Assembly: GCF_029227855.1 (NCBI RefSeq)
Contig: NZ_CP074356.1
Origin: Escherichia coli
GTDB taxonomy: Bacteria; Pseudomonadota; Gammaproteobacteria; Enterobacterales; Enterobacteriaceae
Length of the DNA: 64,000 nt
Strand: one strand, 5' to 3'
Positions 2,428 through 19,129 of the stretch are shown in pieces. The translations under genes were made by a program, and so were the position numbers. The stretch's first letter is position 1, and each line of letters begins with the position of its first letter. Below the pieces are notes generated by a model that saw nothing but the letters and a program-made list of their open reading frames with translations, was not told where the DNA came from and did no database searches.

Positions 2428-3171
2428 ATGACCACACCAAATCCACTGGCAAAGACGAAAGGTGCGGGGACGACGTTCTGGATGTATACCGGCAACGGCG
2501 ATGCGTTTGCGAACCCTTTGTCGGACACTGACTGGCTGCGTCTTGCGATGGTGAAGGATCTGCAACCTGGCGAAATGACCGCTGATGCAGAAGATGACAC
2601 TTATCTCGATGATGAAGATGCAGACTGGAAAACGACAACCCAGGGGCAGAAATCCGTTGGTGATACTTCGGCGACGCTGGCCTGGCGTCCGGGTGACAGC
2701 GGGCAGAAAAAACTGGTTCAGTTGTTCGACTCCGGTGAAGTCTGCGCGTTTCGTATCAAATATCCCAACGGCACTGTTGATGTTTTCCGTGGCTGGCTGA
2801 GCTCACTGGGTAAAACCATTGCCTCAAAAGACGTGATGACCCGCACTGTGAAAATCAGCGGTGTGGGGCGTCCGTATCTGGCAGAGGAAGGCACTGAAAC
2901 CGTGAGCGTTACCGGGCTGACAGTATCACCGGCGTCTGCCAGTGTAAAAGTGGGAGCAACCACCACGCTGACCTTTACAGTAAAACCTGACGGAGCCAGT
3001 GACAAAGCGATCAGTGTGCATTCGTCAGATCCACAGACTGCCACGGTTACCCTGAACGGACTTGTGGCCACGGTAAAAGGCGTGAAGCAGGGCAGTGTCA
3101 GCATTGTGGGCATGACCGCTGACGGGAATTTTGTGGCTGTGGCTGCGGTGACTGTCAGCGCCGCAGGTTAA
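2428..3171 (+). CDS. Major tail protein (lambda gpV-like) with C-terminal Ig-like (Big_2) domain
   Basis: ATG at 2428 follows an AAGGAGGTGG Shine-Dalgarno; 247 aa; C-terminus is a Thr/Val-rich beta domain typical of V. Confidence 0.9.
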   Translation: MTTPNPLAKTKGAGTTFWMYTGNGDAFANPLSDTDWLRLAMVKDLQPGEMTADAEDDTYLDDEDADWKTTTQGQKSVGDTSATLAWRPGDSGQKKLVQLFDSGEVCAFRIKYPNGTVDVFRGWLSSLGKTIASKDVMTRTVKISGVGRPYLAEEGTETVSVTGLTVSPASASVKVGATTTLTFTVKPDGASDKAISVHSSDPQTATVTLNGLVATVKGVKQGSVSIVGMTADGNFVAVAAVTVSAAG

Positions 3172-3191
3172 CAGGACGATACTCATCATTT

Positions 3192-3219
3192 GCCCCGGTT
3201 ATCCGGGGCTTTTTTGCAG
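3192..3219 (+). terminator. Intrinsic terminator-like hairpin between V and G
   Basis: GCCCCGG-TTAT-CCGGGGC stem followed by TTTTTT. Confidence 0.55.
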
Positions 3220-3228
3220 GTGGAGAAC

Positions 3229-3618
3229 ATGATGTTTCTGAAACAGGGCACGTTTAATTATGAAAAACAGTCCGTGGTGCTCAGTGAGCTGTCCGGGCTG
3301 CAGAGAATTGAATATCTGGCGTTTGTTCAGCAGCGAACGGCAAAGTTTGATGCCGGTGAGGGAGAACTGCCGGAGGCTGAACGACAGATTGCTTTTCTGC
3401 GGATGGGGATGGATATCAATGCCTGGCTGGTTTCCCGCTCACTGTGGAATGCGGATCAGTCTAAGGATGTAGAGACGCTTTGCGCATCCGTTATTACAAC
3501 ATGGTCGTATGATGCCCTGGGTGCGGGGGCGGAGATGGTTCTGTCGCTGAGCGGTATGGGGGCCATTGATAATGCCGGGGATGATGAGCATGAGGCGCTG
3601 ACGCCGGAAAAGTCCTGA
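3229..3618 (+). CDS. Tail assembly chaperone (lambda gpG-like)
   Basis: 129-aa ORF; GGTGGAG Shine-Dalgarno before ATG 3229; sits before the tape measure gene. Confidence 0.85.
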   Translation: MMFLKQGTFNYEKQSVVLSELSGLQRIEYLAFVQQRTAKFDAGEGELPEAERQIAFLRMGMDINAWLVSRSLWNADQSKDVETLCASVITTWSYDALGAGAEMVLSLSGMGAIDNAGDDEHEALTPEKS

Positions 3619-3956
3619 CGCGGGAAATGCAGTTTGTCATGCGGCTTGCCCGGGAGTTCCGACGGGCAGACTGGCGGCGGATGCTGTCGGAAATGTCGGC
3701 CACTGAGCTTGGTGAGTGGGGCGATTATTTCCGGATGCAGAGCTTCAGTGATGTGTGGATGGATGCGCAGTTTGCCTCGCTGAAGGCATTGATCGTGAGA
3801 ATGGTGTCCGGCAGCAGTGATGCTGCGGTGGCTGATTTCAGCCTTTTACCGGAAGAGAACGGGATACCGGAGCGAACGGACGAAGAACTGATGCATCTTG
3901 GGGAAGGTATTTCCGGAGGTGTGCGTTATGGACCAGATAGCCAACCTGGTCATTGA
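3594..3956 (+). CDS. T-frame extension of the G-T fusion chaperone (reached by -1 frameshift from G)
   Basis: The -1 frame is open from 3594 and overlaps the last 8 codons of G; candidate slip site GGAAAAG at 3606-3612. Confidence 0.65.
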   Translation, partial: GADAGKVLTREMQFVMRLAREFRRADWRRMLSEMSATELGEWGDYFRMQSFSDVWMDAQFASLKALIVRMVSGSSDAAVADFSLLPEENGIPERTDEELMHLGEGISGGVRYGPDSQPGH

Positions 3957-6900
3957 TTTGGGGATTGATGCGGCAGAGTTTAAAAATGAAATCCCCCGTA
4001 TCAAAAACCTTCTGAATGGTGCAGCCAGCGATGCAGAACGGTCTTCTGCCCGTATGCAGCGTTTTATGGAGCGTCAGACTCAGGCCGCCCGGCAGACAAC
4101 GCAGGCGGCGTCTTCGGCTGCAACAGCCGCATCCGTCCATGCGCAGACAGTGGAGAAGAACGCACAGGCTCATGAACGCATGGCCCGCGAGGTGGAGAAA
4201 ACCCGCCAGCGCATGGAGGCGCTGAGCCAGAAAATGCGCGAGGAACAGGCGCAGGCCATGGCTCTGGCGGAGGCTCAGGATAAAGCGGCTGCTGCGTTTT
4301 ATCGTCAGATTGACAGTGTGAAACAGGCCAGTGCGGGGCTGCAGGAATTACAGCGTATTCAGCAGCAGATCCGACAGGCCAGAAACAGTGGCGGGATTGG
4401 TCAGCAGGATTATCTGGCGCTGATTTCTGAGGTTACGGCGAAAACCCGTGTTCTTACACAGGCTGAGGAAGAGGCTACCCGACAGAAAGTGGCGTTTATC
4501 CGTCAGCTTAAAGAGCAGGCAACCCGCCAGAATCTTTCTTCTTCTGAGTTGCTTCGTGCTAAGGCTGCCCAGCTGGGGGTAAGCAGTGCTGCAGAAGTGT
4601 ATATCCGCAAAATGGAGCAGGCAGGAAAAGCCACGCATTCGCTGGGTCTGAAAAGTGCAGCGGCCCGTCAGGAGATAGGCGTTCTGATAGGTGAACTGGC
4701 CCGCGGAAATTTAGGTGCGCTGAGGGGATCCGGAATAACGCTGGCTAACCGTGCCGGGTGGATAGACACATTGATGTCACCGAAAGGCATGATGCTTGGC
4801 GGGGTTATTGGCGGTATTGCCGCGGCTGTCTATGGTCTGGGTAAAGCCTGGTATGACGGTCAGAAGGAGGGGGAAGAATTTAACCGCCAGCTGTCGCTGA
4901 CGGGGCATTATGCCGGAGTCACTGCCGGGCAGCTGTGGACGCTCAGTCGTGCTATTTCCGGGAATGGTATCACGCAACATGCTGCAGCCGGTGCGCTGGC
5001 TCAGGTGGTGGGTAGTGGTGCATTTCGTGGAAACGATATCGGTATGGTGGCGAGAGCTGCCGCACAGATGGAGCGATCGGTTGGCCAGTCGATCAGCGAT
5101 ACCATAAATCAGTTTAAGCGGCTGAAGGATGATCCTGTAAATGCCGCGAAGGCTCTGGACAATGAGCTGCATTTTCTTACTGCCACTCAGCTTGAGCAGA
5201 TACGTGTCCTTGGGGATCAGGGACGGTCCAGTGATGCTGCACGGATAGCCATGTCTGCACTGGCAGAGGAAACCGGTCGGCGTACTGCGGATATTGATAA
5301 TAACCTCAATGCGCTTGGTAGTACGCTGAAGTATCTGTCTGATTTGTGGAGTCGTTTCTGGGATGCGGCCATGAATATTGGTCGTGAAGACTCGCTGGAT
5401 GAACAAATTGCCGCTTTACAGGAGAAAGTGTCGCGGGCGAAAAGACTCCCCTGGACGGCATCATCTTCTCAGGTTGAATACGATCAGCAGCGTCTTAACG
5501 ATCTTCAGGAGAAAAAACGCCAGAAGGATTTGCAGGATGCAAAAGAGCAGGCAGAGCGGAATTATCAGGAGCAACAGAAACGCCGTAATGCTGAAAATGC
5601 TGCACTGAACCGGATGAATGAAACTGAAGCAGCACGGCATCAGCGTGAAATTGCGCGTATTAATGCCATGCAGTACGCCGATCAGGCTGTCAGGGATGCG
5701 GCGATACAACGTGAAAATGAACGTTACGAGAAAGCCCTGGCATCCGGTAAGAAAAAAACACGCGAAACCCGTAATGATGAGGCCACCCGGTTATTGCTGC
5801 AGTACAGTCAGCAACAGGCACAGGTGGAAGGGCAGATTGCTGCTGCAAGACAGTCAGCAGGCATTGCCACTGACAGGATGACAGAAGCGCATAAACAGCT
5901 TCTGGCTCTGCAGCAGCGCATCAGCGACCTGGACGGGAAAAAACTGACGGCAGATGAAAAGAGTGTGCTTGCCCGTAAAGATGAACTGATTCAGGCATTG
6001 ACGCTGCTGGATGTAAAACAGCAGGAGCTTCAGAAACAGACGGCACTCAACGAGCTGAAGAAAAAAACAATTCAGCTGACCAGTCAACTGGCTGAAGAAG
6101 AGCGCGCTCAGCGTCAGCAACATGACCTGGATATCGCCACGGTGGGTATGGGTGATCAGCAGCGGCAGCGATATCAGGTACAACTGAGTCTTCGCCAGAA
6201 ATACCAGCAACAGCTGGAGCAGTTGAGGCGGGATAGTGAGCGGAAAGGGACATATAACACGGATGACTACAGAAAGGCCGAGCAGGCGCTGACGGAGAGC
6301 CTGAACCGACAACTGAGTGAGAATCGCCGTTACTGGCAACAGCTTGAAATTGCTCAGGGTGACTGGAAAAACGGAGTCCTGCGTGCACTCCAGAATGTCA
6401 CTGAGAATGCGGATAACACAGCCGGGACAGTGGAACAGTTGTTCACGTCTGCGTTCAGTAGCATGAGTGACTGGCTGGCGACATTCTGTACTACAGGCAA
6501 ACTCAATTTCAAATCCTTCACCTCTTCTGTGCTGTCAGATATGTCCAGAATCATGGCTCAGATAGCTTTAATGAAAGCGGTAAAAGGCATTGCTTCCGCG
6601 CTGCCTTTTGATTTTGTAGCTAATGCTGATGGCGGTGTTTATCAGTCGGCTGATTTGAGTCGCTACAGTGGCACGGTGGTTAACCGTCCGACGTTTTTTG
6701 CTTTTGCAAAAGGCGCGGGTGTGATGGGGGAAGCTGGGCCTGAAGCCATTCTGCCACTGCGTCGTGGTGCTGACGGTAAGCTGGGGGTTGTGGCGGATAT
6801 TGGTGGTTCAGGTATGGCGATGTTTGCCCCGCAGTACAACATCGAGATCAATAACGATGGCACGAACGGGCAGATAGGTCCGGCTGCCCTGAAGGTGGTT

Positions 6901-9368: not shown

Positions 9369-12300
9369 ATGGGTAAAGGCAGCAGTAAGGGGCATACCCC
9401 GCGCGAAGCGAAGGACAACCTGAAGTCCACGCAGCTGCTGAGTGTGATCGATGCCATCAGCGAAGGGCCGGTTGAAGGTCCGGTGGATGGATTAAAAAGC
9501 GTGCTGCTGAACAGTACGCCGGTGCTGGACAGTGAGGGGAATACCAATATATCCGGCGTCACGGTGGTGTTCCGGGCCGGTGAGCAGGAGCAGACTCCGC
9601 CGGAGGGATTTGAATCCTCCGGTTCCGAGACGGTGCTGGGTACGGAAGTGAAATATGACACGCCGATCACCCGCACCATCACGTCGGCAAACATCGACCG
9701 TCTGCGCTTTACCTTCGGTGTGCAGGCACTGGTGGAAACCACCTCAAAGGGGGACAGGAATCCATCGGAAGTCCGCCTGCTGGTTCAGATACAACGTAAC
9801 GGTGGCTGGGTGACGGAAAAAGACATCACCATTAAGGGTAAAACCACCTCGCAGTATCTGGCCTCAGTGGTGGTGGATAACCTGCCGCCGCGCCCGTTTA
9901 ATATCCGGATGCGCAGGATGACGCCGGACAGCACCACAGACCAGCTGCAGAACAAAACGCTCTGGTCGTCATACACCGAAATCATCGATGTGAAACAGTG
10001 CTACCCGAACACGGCACTGGTCGGCGTGCAGGTGGACTCGGAGCAGTTCGGCAGCCAGCAGGTGAGCCGTAATTATCATCTGCGAGGGCGTATTCTGCAG
10101 GTGCCGTCGAACTATAACCCGCAGACGCGGCAATACAGCGGTATCTGGGACGGGACGTTTAAACCGGCATACAGCAACAACATGGCCTGGTGTCTGTGGG
10201 ATATGCTGACCCATCCGCGCTACGGCATGGGGAAGCGTCTCGGTGCGGCGGATGTGGACAAATGGGCGCTGTATGTCATCGGCCAGAATTGCGACCAGTC
10301 GGTGCCGGATGGCTTTGGTGGCACGGAGCCGCGCATCACCTGTAATGCCTGGCTGACCACGCAGCGCAAGGCGTGGGATGTGCTCAGTGATTTCTGCTCG
10401 GCGATGCGCTGTATGCCGGTATGGAACGGGCAGACGCTGACGTTCGTGCAGGACCGGCCATCGGATAAGGTGTGGACCTATAACCGCAGTAATGTGGTGA
10501 TGCCGGATGATGGCGCGCCGTTCCGCTACAGCTTCAGCGCCCTGAAGGACCGTCATAATGCCGTTGAGGTGAACTGGATTGACCCGAATAACGGCTGGGA
10601 GACGGCGACAGAGCTTGTGGAGGACACGCAGGCCATTGCCCGTTACGGTCGTAACGTCACGAAGATGGATGCCTTTGGCTGTACCAGCCGGGGGCAGGCA
10701 CACCGCGCCGGGCTGTGGCTGATTAAAACAGAACTGCTGGAAACGCAGACCGTGGATTTCAGCGTCGGCGCAGAAGGGCTTCGCCATGTACCGGGCGATG
10801 TTATTGAAATCTGTGATGATGACTATGCCGGTATCAGCACCGGTGGTCGTGTGCTGGCGGTGAACAGCCAGACCCGGACGCTGACGCTCGACCGTGAAAT
10901 CACGCTGCCATCCTCCGGTACCACGCTGATAAGCCTGGTTGACGGAAGTGGCAATCCGGTCAGCGTGGAGGTTCAGTCCGTCACCGACGGCGTGAAGGTA
11001 AAAGTGAGCCGTGTTCCTGACGGTGTTGCTGAATACAGCGTATGGGGGCTGAAGCTGCCGACGCTGCGCCAGCGACTGTTCCGCTGCGTGAGTATCCGTG
11101 AGAACGACGACGGCACGTATGCCATCACCGCCGTGCAGCATGTGCCGGAAAAAGAGGCCATCGTGGATAACGGGGCGCACTTTGACGGCGAACAGAGTGG
11201 CACGGTGAATGGTGTCACGCCGCCAGCGGTGCAGCACCTGACCGCAGAAGTCACTGCAGACAGCGGGGAATATCAGGTGCTGGCGCGCTGGGATACGCCG
11301 AAGGTGGTGAAGGGTGTGAGCTTTATGCTTCGCCTGACCGTGGCAGCGGATGACGGCAGTGAGCGGCTGGTCAGCACGGCCCGGACGACGGAAACCACAT
11401 ACCGCTTCAGGCAGCTGGCGCTGGGAAGCTACAGGCTGACAGTCCGGGCGGCAAATGCCTGGGGGCAGCAGGGCGATCCTGCATCGGTATCGTTCCGGAT
11501 TGCCGCACCGGCAGCGCCGTCGCGGATTGAGCTGACGCCGGGCTATTTTCAGATAACCGCCACGCCCCATCTTGCCGTTTATGATCCGACGGTACAGTTT
11601 GAGTTCTGGTTCTCGGAAAAGCGGATTGCGGATATCAGGCAGGTTGAAACTACAGCCCGCTATCTTGGCACGGCGCTGTACTGGATAGCTGCCAGTATCA
11701 ATATCAAACCGGGCCATGATTATTATTTTTACATCCGCAGTGTGAACACCGTTGGCAAATCGGCATTTGTGGAGGCTGTTGGCCAGCCGAGTGATGATGC
11801 ATCCGGCTATCTGGATTTTTTCAAAGGCGAGATAGGGAAAAGCCATCTGGCTCAGGAGCTGTGGACGCAGATTGATAACGGTCAGCTTGCGCCTGACCTG
11901 GCTGAAATCAGGACGTCCATTACGGATGTCAGCAATGAAATCACGCAGACCGTCAATAAGAAACTGGAAGACCAGAGTGCGGCAATCCAGCAGATACAGA
12001 AGGTTCAGGTTGATACAAATAATAACCTGAACAGCATGTGGGCTGTGAAGCTGCAGCAGATGCAGGACGGACGCCTTTATATCGCGGGTATTGGTGCCGG
12101 TATTGAGAATACCCCTGACGGTATGCAGAGTCAGGTGCTGCTGGCGGCGGACAGGATTGCGATGATTAATCCTGCGAATGGCAACACAAAACCGATGTTT
12201 GTTGGTCAGGGCGATCAGATATTCATGAACGAAGTGTTCCTGAAATATCTGACGGCTCCCACCATTACCAGCGGCGGTAATCCTCCGGCATTTTCCCTGA

Positions 12301-12848
12301 CACCGGACGGGCGGCTGACGGCGAAAAATGCCGATATTAGCGGTAACGTGAATGCGAACTCCGGGACGCTCAACAACGTCACGATTAACGAGAACTGCCG
12401 GGTTCTGGGAAAACTGTCCGCGAACCAGATTGAAGGCGATCTCGTTAAAACAGTGGGCAAAGCTTTCCCCCGGGACTCCCGTGCACCGGAACGGTGGCCA
12501 TCAGGGACCATTACCGTCAGGGTTTATGACGATCAGCCGTTTGACCGGCAGATTGTTATTCCGGCGGTGGCATTCAGCGGCGCTAAACATGAGAGAGAGC
12601 ATACTGATATTTACTCCTCATGCCGTCTGATAGTGCGGAAAAACGGTGCTGAAATTTATAACCGTACCGCGCTGGATAATACGCTGATTTACAGTGGCGT
12701 TATTGATATGCCTGCCGGTCACGGTCACATGACGCTGGAGTTTTCGGTGTCAGCATGGCTGGTAAATGACTGGTATCCCACAGCAAGTATCAGCGATCTG
12801 CTGGTTGTGGTGATGAAGAAAGCCACCGCAGGCATCAGTATCAGCTGA
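9369..12848 (+). CDS. Host specificity / central tail fibre protein (lambda gpJ-like)
   Basis: 1159 aa; the first ~800 aa match recalled lambda J closely; the C-terminal ~300 aa differ. Confidence 0.95.
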
Positions 12849-12915: not shown

Positions 12916-13515
12916 ATGCGTAAAGTTTGTGCCGCCATTTTTTCCGCAGCCATTTGTCTGGCCGTATCCGGTGCGCCTGCATGGGCATCTGAACATCAGT
13001 CCACGCTGAGCGCGGGGTATCTTCATGCCTCGACGAACGTTCCCGGCAGCGATGATCTGAACGGGATTAACGTGAAATACCGTTATGAGTTTACGGACAC
13101 ACTGGGGATGGTGACGTCATTCAGCTATGCAGGAGACAAGAATCGCCAGCTTACCCGTTACAGCGATACCCGCTGGCATGAAGATTCCGTGCGTAACCGC
13201 TGGTTCAGCGTGATGGTGGGGCCGTCTGTGCGCGTGAATGAATGGTTCAGCGCGTATGCGATGGCGGGTATGGCTTACAGCCGTGTTTCGACTTTCTCCG
13301 GAGATTATATCCGCGTAACTGACAACAAGGGGAAAACGCACGATGTGCTGACCGGAAGTGATGACGGTCGCCACAGCGACACGTCTCTGGCATGGGGGGC
13401 TGGCGTGCAGTTTAACCCGACCGAATCCGTGGCCATTGATATTGCTTATGAAGGTTCCGGCAGTGGCGACTGGCGCACTGACGGTTTCATCGTTGGTGTC
13501 GGTTATAAATTCTGA
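12916..13515 (+). CDS. lom: Lom-like outer membrane beta-barrel protein (Ail/PagC/OmpX family)
   Basis: 199 aa with signal peptide, alternating aromatic beta strands and terminal Phe; sits after J as in lambda. Confidence 0.9.
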
Positions 13516-13541
13516 TTAGCCAGGTAACACAGTGTTATGAC

Positions 13542-13569
13542 AGCCCGCCGGTTCAGGCGGGCTTTTTTG
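13542..13569 (+). terminator. Intrinsic terminator after lom
   Basis: AGCCCGCC-GGTTCAG-GCGGGCT hairpin followed by TTTTTT. Confidence 0.6.
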
Positions 13570-14272
13570 TGCACAGAAAACCCCCAGCTAGGCTGGGGGT
13601 TCCGGAAAGCTTTCAGCTTTGAGCCAGTTATTAAAACCCCTTTTGATTTGTTAAAACACTTTGCGGTCTGGCAACTGCAAGTGTCAAACAAGAAATCAAA
13701 AGGGGGTCCCAATGGGGAACGAAAAGAGCTTAGCGCACACCCGATGGAACTGTAAATATCACATAGTTTTTGCGCCAAAATACCGAAGACAGGTGTTCTA
13801 CAGAGAGAAGCGTAGAGCAATAGGCAGTATTTTGAGAAAGCTGTGTGAGTGGAAAAGCGTACGGATTCTGGAAGCTGAATGCTGTGCAGATCATATCCAT
13901 ATGCTTGTGGAGATCCCGCCCAAAATGAGCGTATCCGGGTTTATGGGATATCTGAAAGGGAAAAGCAGTCTGATGCTTTACGAGCAGTTTGGTGATTTGA
14001 AATTCAAATACAGGAACAGGGAGTTCTGGTGCAGAGGGTACTACGTCGATACAGTGGGTAAGAACACGGCGAAGATACAGGATTACATAAAGCACCAGCT
14101 TGAAGAGGATAAAATGGGAGAGCAGTTATCGATTCCCTATCCGGGCAGCCCGTTTACGGGCCGTAAGTAACGAAGTTGGATGCAAATGTCAGATCGTGTG
14201 CGCCTGTTAGGGCGCGGCTGGTAAGAGAGCCTTATAGGCGCATTTGAAAAACCTCCGGCTATGCCGGAGGAT
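13568..14272 (+). mobile_element. IS200-type insertion sequence (IS200/IS605 family); boundaries approximate
   Basis: About 0.7 kb, a single Y1 transposase gene, left-end hairpin AAAACCCCCAGC-TAG-GCTGGGGGTT and a second stem-loop over the tnpA ribosome binding site. Confidence 0.65.
13712..14170 (+). CDS. tnpA: IS200-type transposase TnpA (HuH Y1 transposase)
   Basis: 152 aa with an HxH-type motif (HIHMLVEI) and the usual IS200 TnpA length. Confidence 0.85.
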   Translation: MGNEKSLAHTRWNCKYHIVFAPKYRRQVFYREKRRAIGSILRKLCEWKSVRILEAECCADHIHMLVEIPPKMSVSGFMGYLKGKSSLMLYEQFGDLKFKYRNREFWCRGYYVDTVGKNTAKIQDYIKHQLEEDKMGEQLSIPYPGSPFTGRK

Positions 14273-14290
14273 ATTTATTGTGGAGTGGAT

Positions 14291-16696
14291 ATGGCAGCAG
14301 TAAAAATCTCAGGTGTGCTGAAAGATGGTGCGGGAAAACCAATACAGAACTGCACTATTCAACTGAAGGCAAAGCGTAACAGCACCACGGTACTGGTGAA
14401 CACGGTGGCTTCTGAAAATCCGGATGAAGCCGGACGTTACAGCATGGATGTTGAGTATGGCCAGTACAGCGTCACCCTGCTGGTTGAAGGTTTTCCGCCT
14501 TCACATGCCGGGACCATTACCGTCTATGAAGGCTCCAGACCAGGTACGCTGAATGATTTTCTCGGTGCCATGACGGAAGATGATGTCATGCCGGAGGCAT
14601 TGCGTCGTTTTGAGGCAATGGTGGAAGAAGTGGCACGCAACGCCGAAGCCGCCTCTCAGAGCGCAGCGGCGGCAAAGAAATCCGAAACTGCAGCGGCATC
14701 ATCAAAGAACGCGGCGAAAACCTCAGAAACGAATGCAGCTAATAGTGCACAGGCGGCAGCGACCTCAAAGACTGCATCGGCAAACTCCGCGACAGCAGCC
14801 AAAAAATCAGAAACCAACGCGAAAAATAGCGAGACAGCCGCAAAGACGAGCGAAACCAACGCAAAGTCCAGCCAGACGGCAGCGAAAACCAGCGAAACGA
14901 ATGCCAAAGCCAGTGAAACTGCGGCAAAAAACAGCCAGGTTGCAGCAGCCCAAAGCGAGAGCGCGGCAGCCGGTTCTGCGACTTCAGCAGCTGGATCAGC
15001 AACTGCTGCGGCTAACAGCCAGAAAGCTGCGAAGACGAGTGAAACTAACGCAAAGTCCAGCCAGACGGCAGCGAAGACCAGCGAAACGAATGCCAAAGCC
15101 AGTGAAACTGCGGCGAAAAGCAGTCAGGATGCAGCGGCCCAAAGCGAGAGTGCCGCAGCCAGTTCTGCAAGCGCGGCGGCTGCTTCTGCCACTGCATCAG
15201 CCAACAGTCAAAAAGCAGCAAAAACCAGTGAAACCAACGCAAAGGCGAGCGAGACTGCGGCGGCGAACTCGGCGCAAGCATCGGCAGCAAGCCAGACAGC
15301 AGCTAAAGCAAGTGAAGACGCAGCCAGAGAGTATGCAAGCCAGGCAGCGGAGCCGTATAAATATGTCTTACAGCCACTGCCTGATGTGTGGATACCGTTT
15401 AACGATTCACTGGATATGATTACGGGCTTTTCGCCATCATATAAAAAAATTGTTATTGGCGACGATGAAATAACAATGCCTGGCGACAAGATTGTAAAGT
15501 TTAAACGCGCATCGAAAGCAACTTACATTAATAAATCTGGTGTGCTGACAGAGGCTGCCATTGACGAGCCACGATTTGAACGTGATGGCCTGCTTATTGA
15601 GGGGCAAAGAACTAACCTGCTAATCAATTCAACAAATCCGACTAAATGGAACAAGTCGTCAAATATGATCTTAAGTGCATCAGGTGTAGATGATTTCGGA
15701 TTCCAGTACGCAAAATTTACATTAAAACCAGAAATGGTAGGGCAAATTTCAGCGATTAACATAGTAACCGTTTCCGGCAGTAAAGGTTTTGATGTAACAG
15801 GCGGAGAAAAGTATGTAACCATATCATGCAGGGTGCAAAGTGGCACTCCAAATTTAAGATGCCGATTACGATTTGAAAACTATGATGGTTCTACCTACAC
15901 ATTCTTAGGTGACGCTTACTTAAATACGACAGATTTATCTATTGATAAGACGGGTGGTGCCGCTAATCGCATTACTGCAAGGGCTGTTAAAGATGAAGCA
16001 AGCAAATGGATCTTTTTTGAGGCGACAATTAAGGCACTTGATACAGAAAATATGATAGGTGGAATGGTTCAGTATGCCCCGGCAAAAGGAGTGGGCACTG
16101 GCGCGGATGATTATATTTATATTGCGACCCCTCAAGTTGAAGGTGGGGCGTGCGCTTCATCGTTTATTATAACAGGCGCATCCCCTGTAACACGCGCCAG
16201 CGATATTGTAACGGTCCCCATTTCTCTAAATTGGTGCAATCCCGCTATTAGTTCATTAGCAGAAGTTAATACCAATTGGGATGAATCGCCAAACAAAGAA
16301 GGTAGCGCACGTATTCTTAATATTTCCACTACGGGAGATACAACTGAAATTGCAGATGAAAGTTATATGTATTTGGGGTATACATCTTTGGGAGCACGCG
16401 CAATCATTACAAATGGTAAAGGCACTAAAATAGAATATAAAAGCGTTATAGAACGACCAGAGAGAAAAAGCATTATCGGCTTTAGATTCACAGAAAGTCG
16501 AGAATTGTGTGTTGTGGTTAACGGTAATATTGGTGCTAAGGTGGTTTCTCCTTATAAAAAACACAAATATACAGGAGGCTTCATTAATATTGGTGGTCAA
16601 TCATCATCCGGCAACCGTCACCTATTTGGACACGTTCGAAATCTGCGTATTTGGCACAAGGCATTGACTGATGCTCAGATGGGGGAGTCAATCTAA
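14291..16696 (+). CDS. stf: Side tail fibre protein: lambda Stf-like N-terminus, Ala/Ser/Thr-rich repeats, divergent C-terminus with LamG/concanavalin-like domain
   Basis: The first ~130 aa match recalled lambda Stf (MAVKISGVLKDG..QNCTIQLKAKRNSTT); the C-terminal region is AT-rich and ends in a LamG-type motif (NLRIWHKALTDAQM). Confidence 0.9.
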   Translation: MAAVKISGVLKDGAGKPIQNCTIQLKAKRNSTTVLVNTVASENPDEAGRYSMDVEYGQYSVTLLVEGFPPSHAGTITVYEGSRPGTLNDFLGAMTEDDVMPEALRRFEAMVEEVARNAEAASQSAAAAKKSETAAASSKNAAKTSETNAANSAQAAATSKTASANSATAAKKSETNAKNSETAAKTSETNAKSSQTAAKTSETNAKASETAAKNSQVAAAQSESAAAGSATSAAGSATAAANSQKAAKTSETNAKSSQTAAKTSETNAKASETAAKSSQDAAAQSESAAASSASAAAASATASANSQKAAKTSETNAKASETAAANSAQASAASQTAAKASEDAAREYASQAAEPYKYVLQPLPDVWIPFNDSLDMITGFSPSYKKIVIGDDEITMPGDKIVKFKRASKATYINKSGVLTEAAIDEPRFERDGLLIEGQRTNLLINSTNPTKWNKSSNMILSASGVDDFGFQYAKFTLKPEMVGQISAINIVTVSGSKGFDVTGGEKYVTISCRVQSGTPNLRCRLRFENYDGSTYTFLGDAYLNTTDLSIDKTGGAANRITARAVKDEASKWIFFEATIKALDTENMIGGMVQYAPAKGVGTGADDYIYIATPQVEGGACASSFIITGASPVTRASDIVTVPISLNWCNPAISSLAEVNTNWDESPNKEGSARILNISTTGDTTEIADESYMYLGYTSLGARAIITNGKGTKIEYKSVIERPERKSIIGFRFTESRELCVVVNGNIGAKVVSPYKKHKYTGGFINIGGQSSSGNRHLFGHVRNLRIWHKALTDAQMGESI
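14837..15214 (+). repeat. In-frame tandem duplication, 2 x 189 bp (63 aa each), inside stf
   Basis: Two near-identical 63-aa units (AAKTSETNAKSSQTAAKTSETNAKASETAAK...ANSQK) within a wider 9-aa periodic region. Confidence 0.8.
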
Positions 16697-16977
16697 TGAA
16701 AGATTTAACACTCAAATTTGCCGACAGGGCCGATTTTTCGGCCTTTATGGGAAGTATTGGCTATTATAATGACGAGTCGATGCAGGATGATATTCTGATT
16801 GATGTGATAGGTAACGTGTACAAAGAAACCGGAGAGCTGACTGAAGATGGCGAACCGGTATGTGTTAAGGAAGATGGATATTTTGTAAACGTGCGCATCA
16901 TTAAGGATACGCAAATATCGTCATTATTCGATGAATACGCGGTTGCTGTTGAGCATCAACTTCGTGGCTGGATGTGA
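16696..16977 (+). CDS. Hypothetical small acidic protein, translationally coupled to stf
   Basis: 93-aa ORF whose ATG overlaps the stf stop (TAATG); AT-rich; no family recognised. Confidence 0.5.
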   Translation: MKDLTLKFADRADFSAFMGSIGYYNDESMQDDILIDVIGNVYKETGELTEDGEPVCVKEDGYFVNVRIIKDTQISSLFDEYAVAVEHQLRGWM

Positions 16978-16986
16978 GGTAGAGAA

Positions 16987-17691
16987 ATGGCTACATCAAC
17001 AGTAATTCCGGGAGACATCACCACGCTGAAGGGAGATGTTAGTAAAGCAAAGGAAGATATTTCCTCTATTAACGGAAAAGTATCAACGCTTCAGACTGAT
17101 ATGGCCAGTGCAAAGCAGGATATCAGCACCAGATACACAAAAACTGAAGTTGATAATAAGCTGAAAAACAAAGTGGAAGTGAACGATCTGGAAAGTGGTC
17201 GTTATGGCGGAGATTTTTACCCGCTGACTGGCCGTGAAGCGTTTTATTTATGGGGATTGGGCACAACTACAGCGGCGGCAAATCTTTATCTTAATCCTGA
17301 CCCTGCAATTTCGTCTGTGCTGCGGTCAACATCGTCTATCCGCTATAAACATTCAGTAGAGACGATAGATTCAGAGCACGCCGATCTCATTTTCAGGATG
17401 CGCCCTGTGTGGTACAGGTCGCAATGCGAAAATGACAGGCGTGACTGGGGATTCTATGGATTGATTGCCGAGGAAGTTGGAGAAATTGCCCCTCAGTTTG
17501 TTCACTGGCGACCAGCCAACGAAGATGATGCACCGGAAACCATTTCCAGCAATGGCCTTGTTGCCGAAGGTGTAATGTACGAACGTCTGGTTGTTCCACT
17601 GATTCACCATATCCAGAAGCTGACTGAAAGAGTTGATGAACTTGAGTCAGAATTAAAGTTGTTATCCGTTTCCCGAAGCGATATCGGATAA
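16987..17691 (+). CDS. Short fibre-like protein: N-terminal coiled coil plus C-terminal intramolecular-chaperone (Peptidase S74-like) domain
   Basis: 234 aa; heptad-like N-terminus; C-terminal region has S-x-x-R-x-K (SSIRYKH), RPVWYR and GLIAEEV motifs resembling endosialidase chaperone domains. Confidence 0.55.
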   Translation: MATSTVIPGDITTLKGDVSKAKEDISSINGKVSTLQTDMASAKQDISTRYTKTEVDNKLKNKVEVNDLESGRYGGDFYPLTGREAFYLWGLGTTTAAANLYLNPDPAISSVLRSTSSIRYKHSVETIDSEHADLIFRMRPVWYRSQCENDRRDWGFYGLIAEEVGEIAPQFVHWRPANEDDAPETISSNGLVAEGVMYERLVVPLIHHIQKLTERVDELESELKLLSVSRSDIG

Positions 17692-17701
17692 AGGAGGCGT
17701 A

Positions 17702-17995
17702 ATGGATATAACACCTTTCCTTCATGCACTTTGTGCTGTGGCTGCGCAGGTACTGGTTGGTCTTTTTACCGGAAACTGGGCTTACGGGGCGATAGCTGGT
17801 TGTACGTTCTTCATTGCGCGTGAACATACCCAGGCAGAATATCGCTGGATTGAAATGTTCGGGCATGGCAAGCGTATGAATATGCCGTGGTGGGGCGGTT
17901 TTGATCCGCGTGCGTGGGATGTGGCAAGCCTGATGGATTTTGCTGTGCCGGTGGTGGCGTGTCTGCTGGTCTGGCTGTTGGTTAATCGTGGGTGA
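17702..17995 (+). CDS. Hypothetical small membrane protein (2-3 predicted TM segments)
   Basis: 97-aa ORF with hydrophobic stretches; GGAGG Shine-Dalgarno upstream. Confidence 0.45.
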   Translation: MDITPFLHALCAVAAQVLVGLFTGNWAYGAIAGCTFFIAREHTQAEYRWIEMFGHGKRMNMPWWGGFDPRAWDVASLMDFAVPVVACLLVWLLVNRG

Positions 17996-18005
17996 AAAAA
18001 GGTGA

Positions 18006-18125
18006 GCTGTATATGCAACGGAGGAAGAAACCTCGTTGCGGGAAGCCTTGAAGAAGTATCGGGTGTTGCTGAACCGTGTTGATACGTCAACTGCACAGGA
18101 TATTGAATGGCCAGCACTGCCGTAG
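18006..18125 (+). pseudogene. tfa: Tail fibre assembly (Tfa) gene remnant: only the conserved C-terminal ~39 codons
   Basis: Translation [29 protein letters not shown] matches the conserved Tfa C-terminus; the frame closes at a stop just upstream at 18003-18005. Confidence 0.55.
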
Positions 18126-18222
18126 GGTAAAACATATAAATTCTATAATTAGATGTATCTTTCCATTTACGGCAAGGAAGGGGGCTTGGAAGACGTAAGG
18201 CATCTCACACCGAGATTATTTT

Positions 18223-18813
18223 TTATATGTCAGGTGTCTGAAGTTTTGCTTTGGCTCTTAAAATGGTTTGCCGCGAGGTTTTGAATTCCCGGGCAATGGC
18301 ACTTATACTTACACCTGACTTAATCCGTTCGAATACCACCTGTTTCTGTTCTTCATTTAACACAGGTGGTCGACCAAAACGTTTCCCTGCGCCCCGGGCT
18401 CTTACTATCCCGGAATGAGTGCGTTCAAGTAAAAGGTCTCGTTCAAATTCAGCGACTGCTGAAATTACTTGCATCATCATTTTTCCTGTTGGACTGGTCA
18501 GGTCAATGCCCCCCAATGCTAAGCAATGCACTCTGATACCTGTTTCGGTCAGTTGTTCCACTGTTTTCCTGATATCCATTGCATTACAACCAAGGCGATC
18601 CAGTTTTGTCACAATCAATTGATCACCACATTTCAGGCGAGCAAGCAACCGGTTAAAACCAGGACGCTCACTGGTTGCTGCTGAGCCGCTAATGTGTTCT
18701 TCGATTATTTGCTGAGGTTTGATTTTAAAACCTGCACTTTCGATTTCCCGGCGTTGATTTTCGGTGGTCTGATCCAGCGTTGATATCCGACAGTAAGCAA
18801 AAATTCGAGACAT
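18223..18813 (-). CDS. pinQ: Serine recombinase / DNA invertase (PinQ/PinR-like)
   Basis: 196 aa; N-terminal catalytic region (YCRISTLDQ) and C-terminal helix-turn-helix; convergent with the tfa remnant, next to ydfK. Confidence 0.85.
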
Positions 18814-19129
18814 AGTGAGACTCTATACGAAATTGGTGTTCATATCATAATGCATCTCAGAAAATAATTTTGATTATTTTTTTGCATGTTTGTATGTACA
18901 CGTTCGAAAATAAACGAATGCGTATGCAACCCCGTAATTTTGGTGAGACCCAAAATCGATTTTGTGAAAAATGGCTTTAACTCGGTTTGTTTTTCGAGTT
19001 CCGGGCGGACTCAAGGAAGAAGAATAGTGTTGCGTGTTATTTTAACCAGATTTCAAGTTGTTTGGTCGTGGAAAAGTGGAGCAAAATGTTGTTAAAGTGG
19101 AAAAATGATAAAAAAGTAAGTTTATTATA

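Follow-up and report, generated by a model that had tools for sequence, protein, structure and literature searches.

A 234-residue phage protein with a C-terminal intramolecular chaperone as the probable short second subunit of the side tail fibre of an Escherichia coli prophage

Introduction

Side tail fibres determine which surface sugars of Escherichia coli can be used by lambda-, T1- and T5-like phages, and they are swapped in host-range engineering. Both the maturation of fibres by an intramolecular chaperone (IMC) and the construction of fibres from two components, or as branched fibres, are established.

In phage T5, the protein pb1 is cut at Thr1263|Ser1264 (T|SGIEYK), with Lys1269 as the base; the mutation S1264A blocks the cleavage, and the uncleaved form fails in receptor competition (PMC4690869). 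The segment templated by known IMCs is the one that lies directly N-terminal of them (PMC4690869). A two-component arrangement is found in the phages DT57C and DT571/2, where a second IMC fibre, LtfB, is encoded downstream of the first, LtfA, and joins the virion only through it (PMC4728585; PMC10713586). In the case of IrisVonRoten (Bas32), a T5-like phage, AlphaFold-Multimer models by the BASEL authors show the protein Gp24 attached to the proximal fibre Gp22 (bioRxiv 10.1101/2024.09.12.612763).

Here we describe a 234-aa protein that is encoded directly downstream of a side tail fibre gene in an E. coli prophage and ends in an IMC. An earlier note on this DNA, made from the sequence alone, had offered two alternatives for it: a mini-fibre that matures by autoproteolysis, or a detached chaperone acting in trans. 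We argue that the protein is probably an allele, the smallest of the common ones, of the second and exchangeable subunit of a side tail fibre built from two components, in other words an IMC-matured mini-fibre carried on the side tail fibre protein Stf.

The gene and its surroundings

The window, that is, the whole stretch of 64,000 nucleotides that was analysed, is part of the E. coli chromosome, and the gene belongs to a lambda-like prophage inserted at the Qin site, ydfJ. The genes around it stand in the following order.

9369-12848: J, the first gene in this order
12916-13515: lom, after J
13661-14170: an IS200-type transposase gene, after lom
14261..16696, plus strand: the side tail fibre protein Stf, 811 aa, with a PF08400 N-terminal domain
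16696..16977, plus strand: a 93-aa accessory protein (phrog_1361), whose start overlaps the Stf stop codon
16976..16979, plus strand: the Shine-Dalgarno sequence GAGG, 7 nt upstream of the ATG of the 234-aa gene, read directly from the sequence
16987..17691, plus strand: the gene of the 234-aa protein, intact, ATG-started, 234 codons, stop codon included in the coordinates
17702..17995, plus strand: a 97-aa predicted membrane protein (phrog_1443), which closes the cassette in lambda-like phages
about 18015-18125: a tfa remnant (pseudogene), downstream of the 97-aa gene
after the tfa remnant, in this order: pinQ, ydfK, a truncated ydfJ and ydfI

The open reading frame is present where the earlier note had placed it, with the sequence quoted there, and its product is named in RefSeq as WP_000235980.1, “tail fiber domain-containing protein”. 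The genes for Stf and for the 93-aa, 234-aa and 97-aa proteins are tightly coupled: a stop-start overlap is followed by gaps of about 10 nt, each of them with a Shine-Dalgarno sequence, and the GAGG in front of the 234-aa gene shares the two last bases of the TGA stop codon of the 93-aa gene (16975-16977). A scan of positions 13500-18900 found no internal promoter or terminator in the cassette, the counts being no higher than the shuffle expectation. The protein had been called stand-alone, which is correct for the polypeptide, but its gene is the third in a tightly coupled side-tail-fibre operon and it bears the anchor of IrisVonRoten Gp24. NCBIfam and PADLOC gave zero matches for the 234-, 93- and 97-aa proteins; the 97-aa membrane protein is probably not part of the fibre.

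The C-terminal chaperone and its cleavage site

17332..17688, plus strand: Peptidase_S74/IMC domain, residues 116-234, with a long terminal helix (198-232)
17332..17349, plus strand: predicted catalytic motif S116-S-I-R-Y-K121, with Ser116 at position 1 of the Pfam S74 model

An S74-type chaperone at the C-terminus had been recognised by eye, with a profile search proposed as the check, and this identification was borne out. PF13884 (Peptidase_S74) matches residues 116-172, corresponding to positions 1-57 of the 58 in the model, with a significant i-Evalue of 2.2e-5. When the PDB sequences were searched with phmmer, the best match was chain 8hqz_d, the 1076-aa LtfA of phage DT57C, through its C-terminal IMC (E 1.2e-7); the ICA domain of MyRF (7dc3) was matched at E 0.023. 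An AlphaFold2 model of the monomer, based on a 103-sequence alignment, has a mean pLDDT of 80 and exceeds 90 over most of residues 121-230. Compared with the PDB by Foldseek, this model has as its best matches the same MyRF ICA domain (7dc3; E 4e-5, prob 1.0), the IMC of GA-1 gp12 (3gud; prob 0.97) and the IMC of the endosialidase endoNF (3gw6). By its profile, position, catalytic dyad and fold, an alpha/beta lobe followed by the long terminal helix, the domain is a member of the Peptidase_S74/IMC family.

In an exhaustive HMMER search, E ≤ 1e-3 was reached by 3583 cluster representatives, of which 1614 passed E ≤ 1e-10. The IMC match is C-terminal in nearly all of the 205 homologues that we collected out of these clusters, with a median of 4 residues after the match, and in the 234-aa protein the IMC is likewise the extreme C-terminus (116-234 of 234). 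An S74 chaperone on so short a protein had looked like an exception to the earlier reader; it is not one, as 63 of the 205 homologues, fragments included, have a length of 280 aa or less.

The Ser and Lys of the motif, S116 and K121, show no variation across 24 close and 103 diverse homologues. With respect to the canonical SDxRxK, the D is replaced (S117) and the R is kept (R119). The motif SSIRYK is thus present in place of SDxRxK, as had been pointed out, but it marks neither an inactive nor an unusual site: a very large IMC subfamily has the consensus R-S-T-S-S-x-R-Y-K, and T5 pb1, which has neither the canonical D nor the R, cleaves. We also considered whether SSIRYK makes the protease inactive, and rejected this reading because the Ser/Lys dyad is invariant and the SGIEYK site of T5 pb1 is cut. 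By analogy with T5 pb1, we predict that the scissile bond is Thr115|Ser116 and that Lys121 serves as the base.

Anchor, shaft and tip

16987..17031, plus strand: N-terminal anchor, residues 1-15 (MATSTVIPGDITTLK), conserved in the proteins encoded at this position of the cassette (slot 3, see below)
17011..17127, plus strand: coiled-coil shaft, residues 9-47, a helix with pLDDT 89-95 in the AlphaFold2 monomer
17194..17331, plus strand: tip, residues 70-115 (SGRYGGDFYPLTGREAFYLWGLGTTTAAANLYLNPDPAISSVLRST), conserved and aromatic-rich

The hydrophobic residues of the shaft keep an unbroken 3-4 spacing (I11, L14, V18, A21, I25, I28, V32, L35, M39, A42 and I46), which corresponds to five heptads, and short helices continue from this helix up to residue 69. 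The earlier figure of about 110 residues of coiled coil is too high, because the confident helix spans residues 9-47 and the tip begins at residue 70; some 40-60 residues is the realistic length. A YTKTEVDNKLK motif occupies residues 49-60, and it is repeated also in the shaft of DT57C LtfA. Among the aligned close homologues, which are 221-269 aa long, the shaft is longer or shorter by complete repeats: some have additional ones, while in P0003 exactly 7 residues are missing.

What had been described as a Gly-rich segment after the coiled coil applies to the start of the next region, but this stretch belongs to a conserved tip of about 45 residues (70-115), in which two parts can be distinguished. 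Residues 93-115 form the strands that precede the cleavage site, and they are conserved throughout the subfamily (T93, T94, N99 and R113 to T115). Residues 70-92, about 23 per chain, are rich in aromatic residues and particular to this type of tip, whose aromatics are Y73, F77, Y78, F86, Y87 and W89. Confidence in the modelled tip is low, with pLDDT below 50 both in the monomer (residues 71-85) and in a linked-trimer model, which was made of three copies joined by 70-residue Gly/Ser linkers with a 10-row alignment and has a mean pLDDT of 51.5.

The 234-aa protein is not the only carrier of this end. Fibres of 539-1243 aa (P0065-P0072) terminate in a sequence corresponding to its last 185-200 residues, at 49-61% identity, and the module shared with these long fibres consists of the shaft motif, the tip and the IMC. 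The alignment of the protein with the final 238 columns of phrog_3299, a fibre family of 1385 columns, likewise speaks for a fibre. Assemblies also contain rearranged and fused variants, one of which (P0047) combines a Lom N-terminus with an IMC.

Conservation and selection

The 234-aa allele is found in 739 of 5426 complete E. coli genomes, in nearly all of them at 95% identity or more, and virulent T1-like phages of the Drexlerviridae keep it at 55-60% protein identity. Comparison with three close alleles gives dN/dS values of 0.16-0.23 for the whole gene, 0.08-0.25 for the tip and 0.09-0.21 for the IMC, and residues 1-115, the part left after the predicted cleavage, are under purifying selection. 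The 234-aa open reading frame is a functional gene under purifying selection.

These values bear on the view that the gene is a decaying remnant, namely what a deletion has left of a long fibre gene, with no current function. Such an origin would suit the alignment of nearly the full length of the protein (residues 1-227) with the C-terminal end of a long fibre family (positions 1147-1384 of the 1385 columns of phrog_3299), and it would suit a locus with an IS200-type transposase and a tfa pseudogene nearby, as well as the existence of rearranged variants such as P0047. However, we regard decay as very improbable. A dN/dS of about 0.2, a frame that is intact and at least 95% identical in more than 700 genomes, and retention in virulent T1-like phages with compact genomes are not expected of a gene without function; in addition, the gene has its own conserved N-terminus and ribosome-binding site, and the length changes among homologues keep the heptad register. 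A gene fragment or pseudogene was accordingly rejected on the grounds of selection, conservation and the gene's own N-terminus.

An exchangeable position behind the side tail fibre gene

The cassette has the order Stf, 93-aa protein, a position that we call slot 3, and 97-aa membrane protein. The order Stf, protein of about 92 aa and slot 3 is also found in about nine other phages of five groups. The carriers are PhiR49_1, PhiR46_1, 2G7b, IdasGreatGrand and PhiR55_1 (lambda-like), PeterMerian (Drexlerviridae, T1-like), JenP2 (Nonagvirus), LM40P1 (Dhillonvirus), and IrisVonRoten and the Salmonella phage FGS017 (T5-like). Homologues of the 93-aa protein occur in 181 phage records. The protein always comes after this type of Stf, whether a slot-3 gene is present or absent; a search of the PDB sequences with this protein returned only chance-level matches.

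The slot-3 proteins are between 221 and 581 aa long. The anchor follows the consensus M-[AV]-T-x-T-[VIN]-I-P-x-D-I-[TK]-x-L-K; it stands at the start of proteins of 231, 234, 293, 346, 348, 574 and 581 aa, and it is common to the slot-3 proteins of all five phage groups, whatever distal part follows. The distal domains are unrelated to each other, and the IMCs fall into two subtypes (SSIRYK and SDRDLK). In the 346- and 348-aa alleles, for example, a middle domain of about 190 residues is followed by a canonical S74 domain of the SDRDLK type (Pfam E 2e-13); the 346-aa allele is present in 429 complete E. coli genomes. The alleles of the T5-like phages are the “T-shaped” fibres with two domains known from Gp24 of IrisVonRoten. 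In the slot-3 protein of the Dhillonvirus LM40P1, no IMC is detectable despite the common anchor.

Alleles of slot 3 appear to be exchanged within otherwise nearly constant surroundings. Prophages that carry either the 234-aa or the 346-aa allele have 93-aa proteins that are 94% identical and 97-aa proteins that are 93-98% identical, and in prophages with either the SSIRYK- or the SDRDLK-type IMC the Stf shaft (residues 31-360) is 93-100% identical to that of the Stf described here. The position can also be empty: phage 21 and ev243 have the Stf, 92-aa and 97-aa genes without any slot-3 gene between them, and an rV5-like phage has a Stf-type fibre end and a 93-aa homologue but no slot 3. By gene order and anchor, the 234-aa protein is a member of the slot-3 class. 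From these comparisons, slot 3 may be described as a classic modular position for receptor-binding proteins, where one universal adaptor at the N-terminus is combined with distal parts that can be exchanged and that each bring their own folding aid. In terms of sequence, the 234-aa allele is the minimal form, since hardly anything separates its adaptor from a fibre-end module.

The same observations allow us to weigh the second of the earlier alternatives, a trans-acting assembly chaperone. According to this explanation, the 234-aa protein is not part of the virion; its S74 domain or its coiled coil helps the Stf trimer to fold, and it is then discarded. The explanation is attractive in that Stf has neither an IMC of its own nor an intact Tfa gene, only the tfa remnant being left, and in that the part remaining after cleavage is tiny. 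In the BASEL annotation, moreover, the T1-like homologue appears as “putative lateral tail fiber chaperone”, a type of annotation that homologues receive because, as with Tfa, a small gene 3' of a fibre gene encodes them. Nevertheless, we consider a trans-acting chaperone quite unlikely, because the IMC subtype tracks the protein's own upstream tip and varies independently of Stf and the 93-aa protein, an IMC is lacking in one of the slot-3 proteins that share the anchor, and slot 3 is optional, as phage 21 and ev243 make do with Stf and the 93-aa gene. Furthermore, the same tip and IMC work in cis at the ends of long fibres, purifying selection acts on the part before the cleavage site, no Tfa-type family is found among the Pfam, PHROG and NCBIfam matches of the protein, and known IMCs template the segment directly N-terminal of themselves (PMC4690869). 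The autoproteolytic mini-fibre of the earlier note, on the other hand, fits the dyad, the long-fibre ends, the heptads and the selection.

The partner fibre and a candidate docking site

15341..15610, plus strand: hyperconserved junction of Stf, residues 361-450, including a sub-segment (about 383-415) that is a candidate docking site for the anchor

Stf consists of the PF08400 N-terminal domain, an Ala-rich shaft, the hyperconserved junction and a variable, lectin-like C-terminal domain (451-780) that is related to the RcGTA head-spike fibre. The junction has 76-89% identity even to fibres of T1-like, T5-like and Nonagvirus phages, whereas residues 451-780 have only 30-60% identity even among lambda-like phages with near-identical shafts; the last 30 residues are conserved again. 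Within the junction, a segment at about 383-415 (DMITGFSPSYK...EITMPGDKIVKFKRAS) is retained, at about 70-90% identity, in nine fibres that have a slot-3 partner. This segment is divergent in phage 21 and ev243, and 19 of its residues are deleted in the rV5-like fibre. The correlation gives a weak hint that the segment may be the docking site of the anchor, the comparison being one with three slot-3-less fibres from two lineages, a small sample that is not phylogenetically independent.

Another explanation is that the 234-aa protein binds no receptor at all. It could be a structural cap, a “blank” allele whose mature stub fills or stabilises the docking site on Stf, while the variable domain of Stf binds all receptors. 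The tip is minimal, and it is conserved where the Stf domain is hypervariable; the large distal domains of other slot-3 alleles are absent from this one. Against this view, the same short tip forms the distal extremity of fibres of 539-1243 aa, and its richness in aromatic residues resembles, in our judgement, many sugar-binding surfaces. Phages can also dispense with slot 3 entirely, so that a pure filler is not obviously needed. We hold the structural cap to be unlikely.

A related idea carries a comparably low probability, slightly below that of the cap. The coiled-coil stub, trimerised by the IMC, could dock on the Stf junction as a clamp that locks or orients the lectin-like heads, without being a receptor-binding fibre. 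If this were true, an intramolecular chaperone would act on a different polypeptide via the product that it folds. In a weaker variant of this idea, the 234-aa protein would be the smallest natural IMC-matured adhesin, with a sugar site formed from about 23 aromatic-rich residues per chain.

How the mini-fibre may be made

We return to the reading that we think likely, in which the 234-aa protein is an IMC-matured mini-fibre carried on Stf. Three chains would associate via their C-terminal IMCs (116-234). The IMC would serve as the template for a small tip with beta structure (about 70-115) and would allow the coiled coil of five heptads (11-47) to close. In the correctly folded trimer, the Thr115|Ser116 bond would then be cut by Ser116 with the help of Lys121, and the chaperone would depart. 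About 115 residues of each chain would remain as the mature stub, kept on the virion by its N-terminal 15 residues. This anchor would dock most likely on the Stf junction (about 361-450), possibly together with the 93-aa protein. As a result, each side fibre would gain a short extra branch or tip beside the variable lectin-like domain of Stf.

Among these steps, attachment to Stf is proposed because of the gene order, the common anchor and the published models of a distant allele, Gp24; Gp22 of IrisVonRoten is 45% identical to Stf over residues 123-811. Trimerisation and self-cleavage are what we infer from the IMC family, and binding of a receptor by the tip of about 45 residues is a possible function. 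In the literature that we searched, we found no experiment or virion proteomics on any allele of about 230 aa. The proteome of SH6 that is available in the literature contains a different T1 fibre.

Comparison with known systems

The main gain is one of annotation. A widespread gene, called “hypothetical” or “chaperone”, can be assigned to a plug-in fibre position that has a 15-residue adaptor and is found in five phage groups, and the 234-aa protein would be annotated as a fibre subunit rather than as a chaperone. It may also be of practical interest as a very compact natural scaffold (anchor, coiled coil and IMC) that might take grafts of other binding domains. The protein opens no new kind of biology; the tail-fibre-domain annotation was already known, and an anchor-bearing distal fibre had been described for a longer allele, Gp24.

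The small genes for lambda Tfa, Mu gpU and T4 gp38 likewise lie downstream of a fibre gene. Their products, however, act in trans on the fibre tip, have no protease dyad and, by the Pfam, PHROG and NCBIfam matches, show no sequence similarity to the 234-aa protein, which does not belong with these Tfa-type chaperones. The IMC domains of endoNF from K1F (3gw6), of gp12 from GA-1/phi29 (3gud) and of MyRF (ICA, 7dc3) share the fold, as found by Foldseek, and the Pfam family. These domains mature large tailspikes or a transcription factor, and they carry the motif S-D-x-R-x-K, as against S-S-x-R-Y-K here.

T5 pb1 resembles the 234-aa protein in its C-terminal IMC, in the Ser and Lys placed five residues apart, in the Thr on the N-terminal side of the scissile bond (T|SGIEYK in pb1, T|SSIRYK here) and in the YTKTEVD-type shaft repeats that both possess. 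The cleavage of pb1 has been shown experimentally and is needed for receptor binding (PMC4690869), whereas that of the 234-aa protein is a prediction. Moreover, pb1 is a single chain of 1396 aa that is attached directly to the tail and has a bullet-shaped receptor-binding domain of about 290 residues; the mature part of the 234-aa protein would have about 115 residues, and its proposed carrier is another fibre.

In DT57C, LtfB adds a second specificity via LtfA, which is the same principle as that proposed for the 234-aa protein. The two systems differ in their parts: the N-terminus of LtfB (about 45 residues) resembles gp15 of phiEco32 and, going by the description in the paper, docks on a region of the LtfA/gp14 type and is set apart from the MATxTVIP anchor; the LtfA/LtfB locus, as the paper describes it, has no 93-aa gene in between; and LtfA ends in an IMC, while Stf does not.

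A further related system is the lateral fibre locus of IrisVonRoten, which shows the same order of a proximal fibre (Gp22), a 92-aa protein and Gp24 (bioRxiv 10.1101/2024.09.12.612763). The 92-aa protein is 38% identical to our 93-aa protein, and Gp24 has the same anchor at its start (MVTKTVIPTDITKLK) and at its end an IMC that is only 27% identical to that of the 234-aa protein. The differences lie in the host phage and in the distal part. IrisVonRoten is a T5-like phage, whereas the 234-aa gene resides in a temperate lambda-like phage; and Gp24 is a “T-shaped” distal fibre of 574 aa with two large receptor-binding domains, whereas the 234-aa protein puts only a coiled coil and a tip of about 45 residues between the same anchor and its chaperone.

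The flanks of the side-fibre cassette

The side-fibre gene stf lies downstream of lom in this prophage, and an open reading frame of the IS200/IS605 type, with GC-rich hairpins on either side, is located between the two genes.

13542-13563 and 14252-14270: GC-rich hairpins flanking the transposase ORF
13661-14170 (+): IS200/IS605-type transposase ORF, 169 aa, between lom and stf
~18015-18125 (+): remnant of the C-terminal part of a tail fibre assembly gene (tfa), adjoining pinQ
18223-18813 (-): pinQ invertase gene, beside the tfa remnant

Because stf directly follows lom, with no transposase ORF, in the otherwise identical prophage of strain CFSAN061763, the ORF is a strain-specific insertion within the tail-fibre operon, and it could exert a polar effect on stf and the cassette. 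At the other end, the tfa remnant and pinQ look like what is left of an earlier invertible stf/tfa module, one displaced by the current cassette.

The Stf shaft and the candidate docking segment

The shaft (residues ~120-355) of Stf (14261-16696) is a long stretch of imperfect repeats rich in Ala, Ser, Thr, Glu, and Lys (SETNAKASETAAK...), and these repeats give rise to spurious long ORFs in alternative frames and on the complementary strand, such as those at 14580-15419 (+) and 14656-15096 (-). Within residues 361-450 (window 15341-15610), the candidate docking segment EITMPGDKIVKFK resembles TVIPGDITTLK in the N-terminal anchor of the third-position (slot-3) protein (16987-17031). Both have a hydrophobic-Pro-Gly-Asp pattern, followed by alternating hydrophobic residues. 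Judged from the sequences, this likeness might reflect strand-to-strand pairing of similar motifs, or else coincidence.

Rearranged homologues

Three homologues from public assemblies are rearranged or shortened: the N-terminus of Lom is joined to the half containing the intramolecular chaperone (IMC) in P0047, residues 1-67 of the slot-3 protein are joined to Ail/Lom-family domains in P0061, and P0064 is a 116-aa product whose last residue is the predicted cleavage residue itself. Deletions, contig ends, or frameshifts probably account for these versions.

Cassettes in related phages

The last cassette gene in lambda-like phages encodes a predicted membrane protein.

17702-17995 (+): 97-aa predicted membrane protein, phrog_1443
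3001-3585 of the phage 21 locus (classic lambdoid): Stf, 92-aa, and 97-aa cassette, slot-3 gene absent
3001-3582 of the ev243 locus: Stf, 92-aa, and 97-aa cassette, slot-3 gene absent
3270-4151 of the Dhillonvirus LM40P1 locus: 293-aa slot-3 protein with the common N-terminal anchor

A PADLOC search with the 97-aa protein gave no match. It is 95-97% identical to the versions in phage 21 and ev243, the former having a signal sequence and two transmembrane segments according to the phage 21 annotators. The gene closes lambda-like cassettes both with and without a slot-3 gene, and it is missing from the T1-like and T5-like versions. Phage 21 and ev243 are natural “minus” controls for any mini-fibre experiment. 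In the LM40P1 slot-3 protein, no S74 domain was detectable; therefore, distal domains that need no IMC for folding can be mounted on the adaptor.
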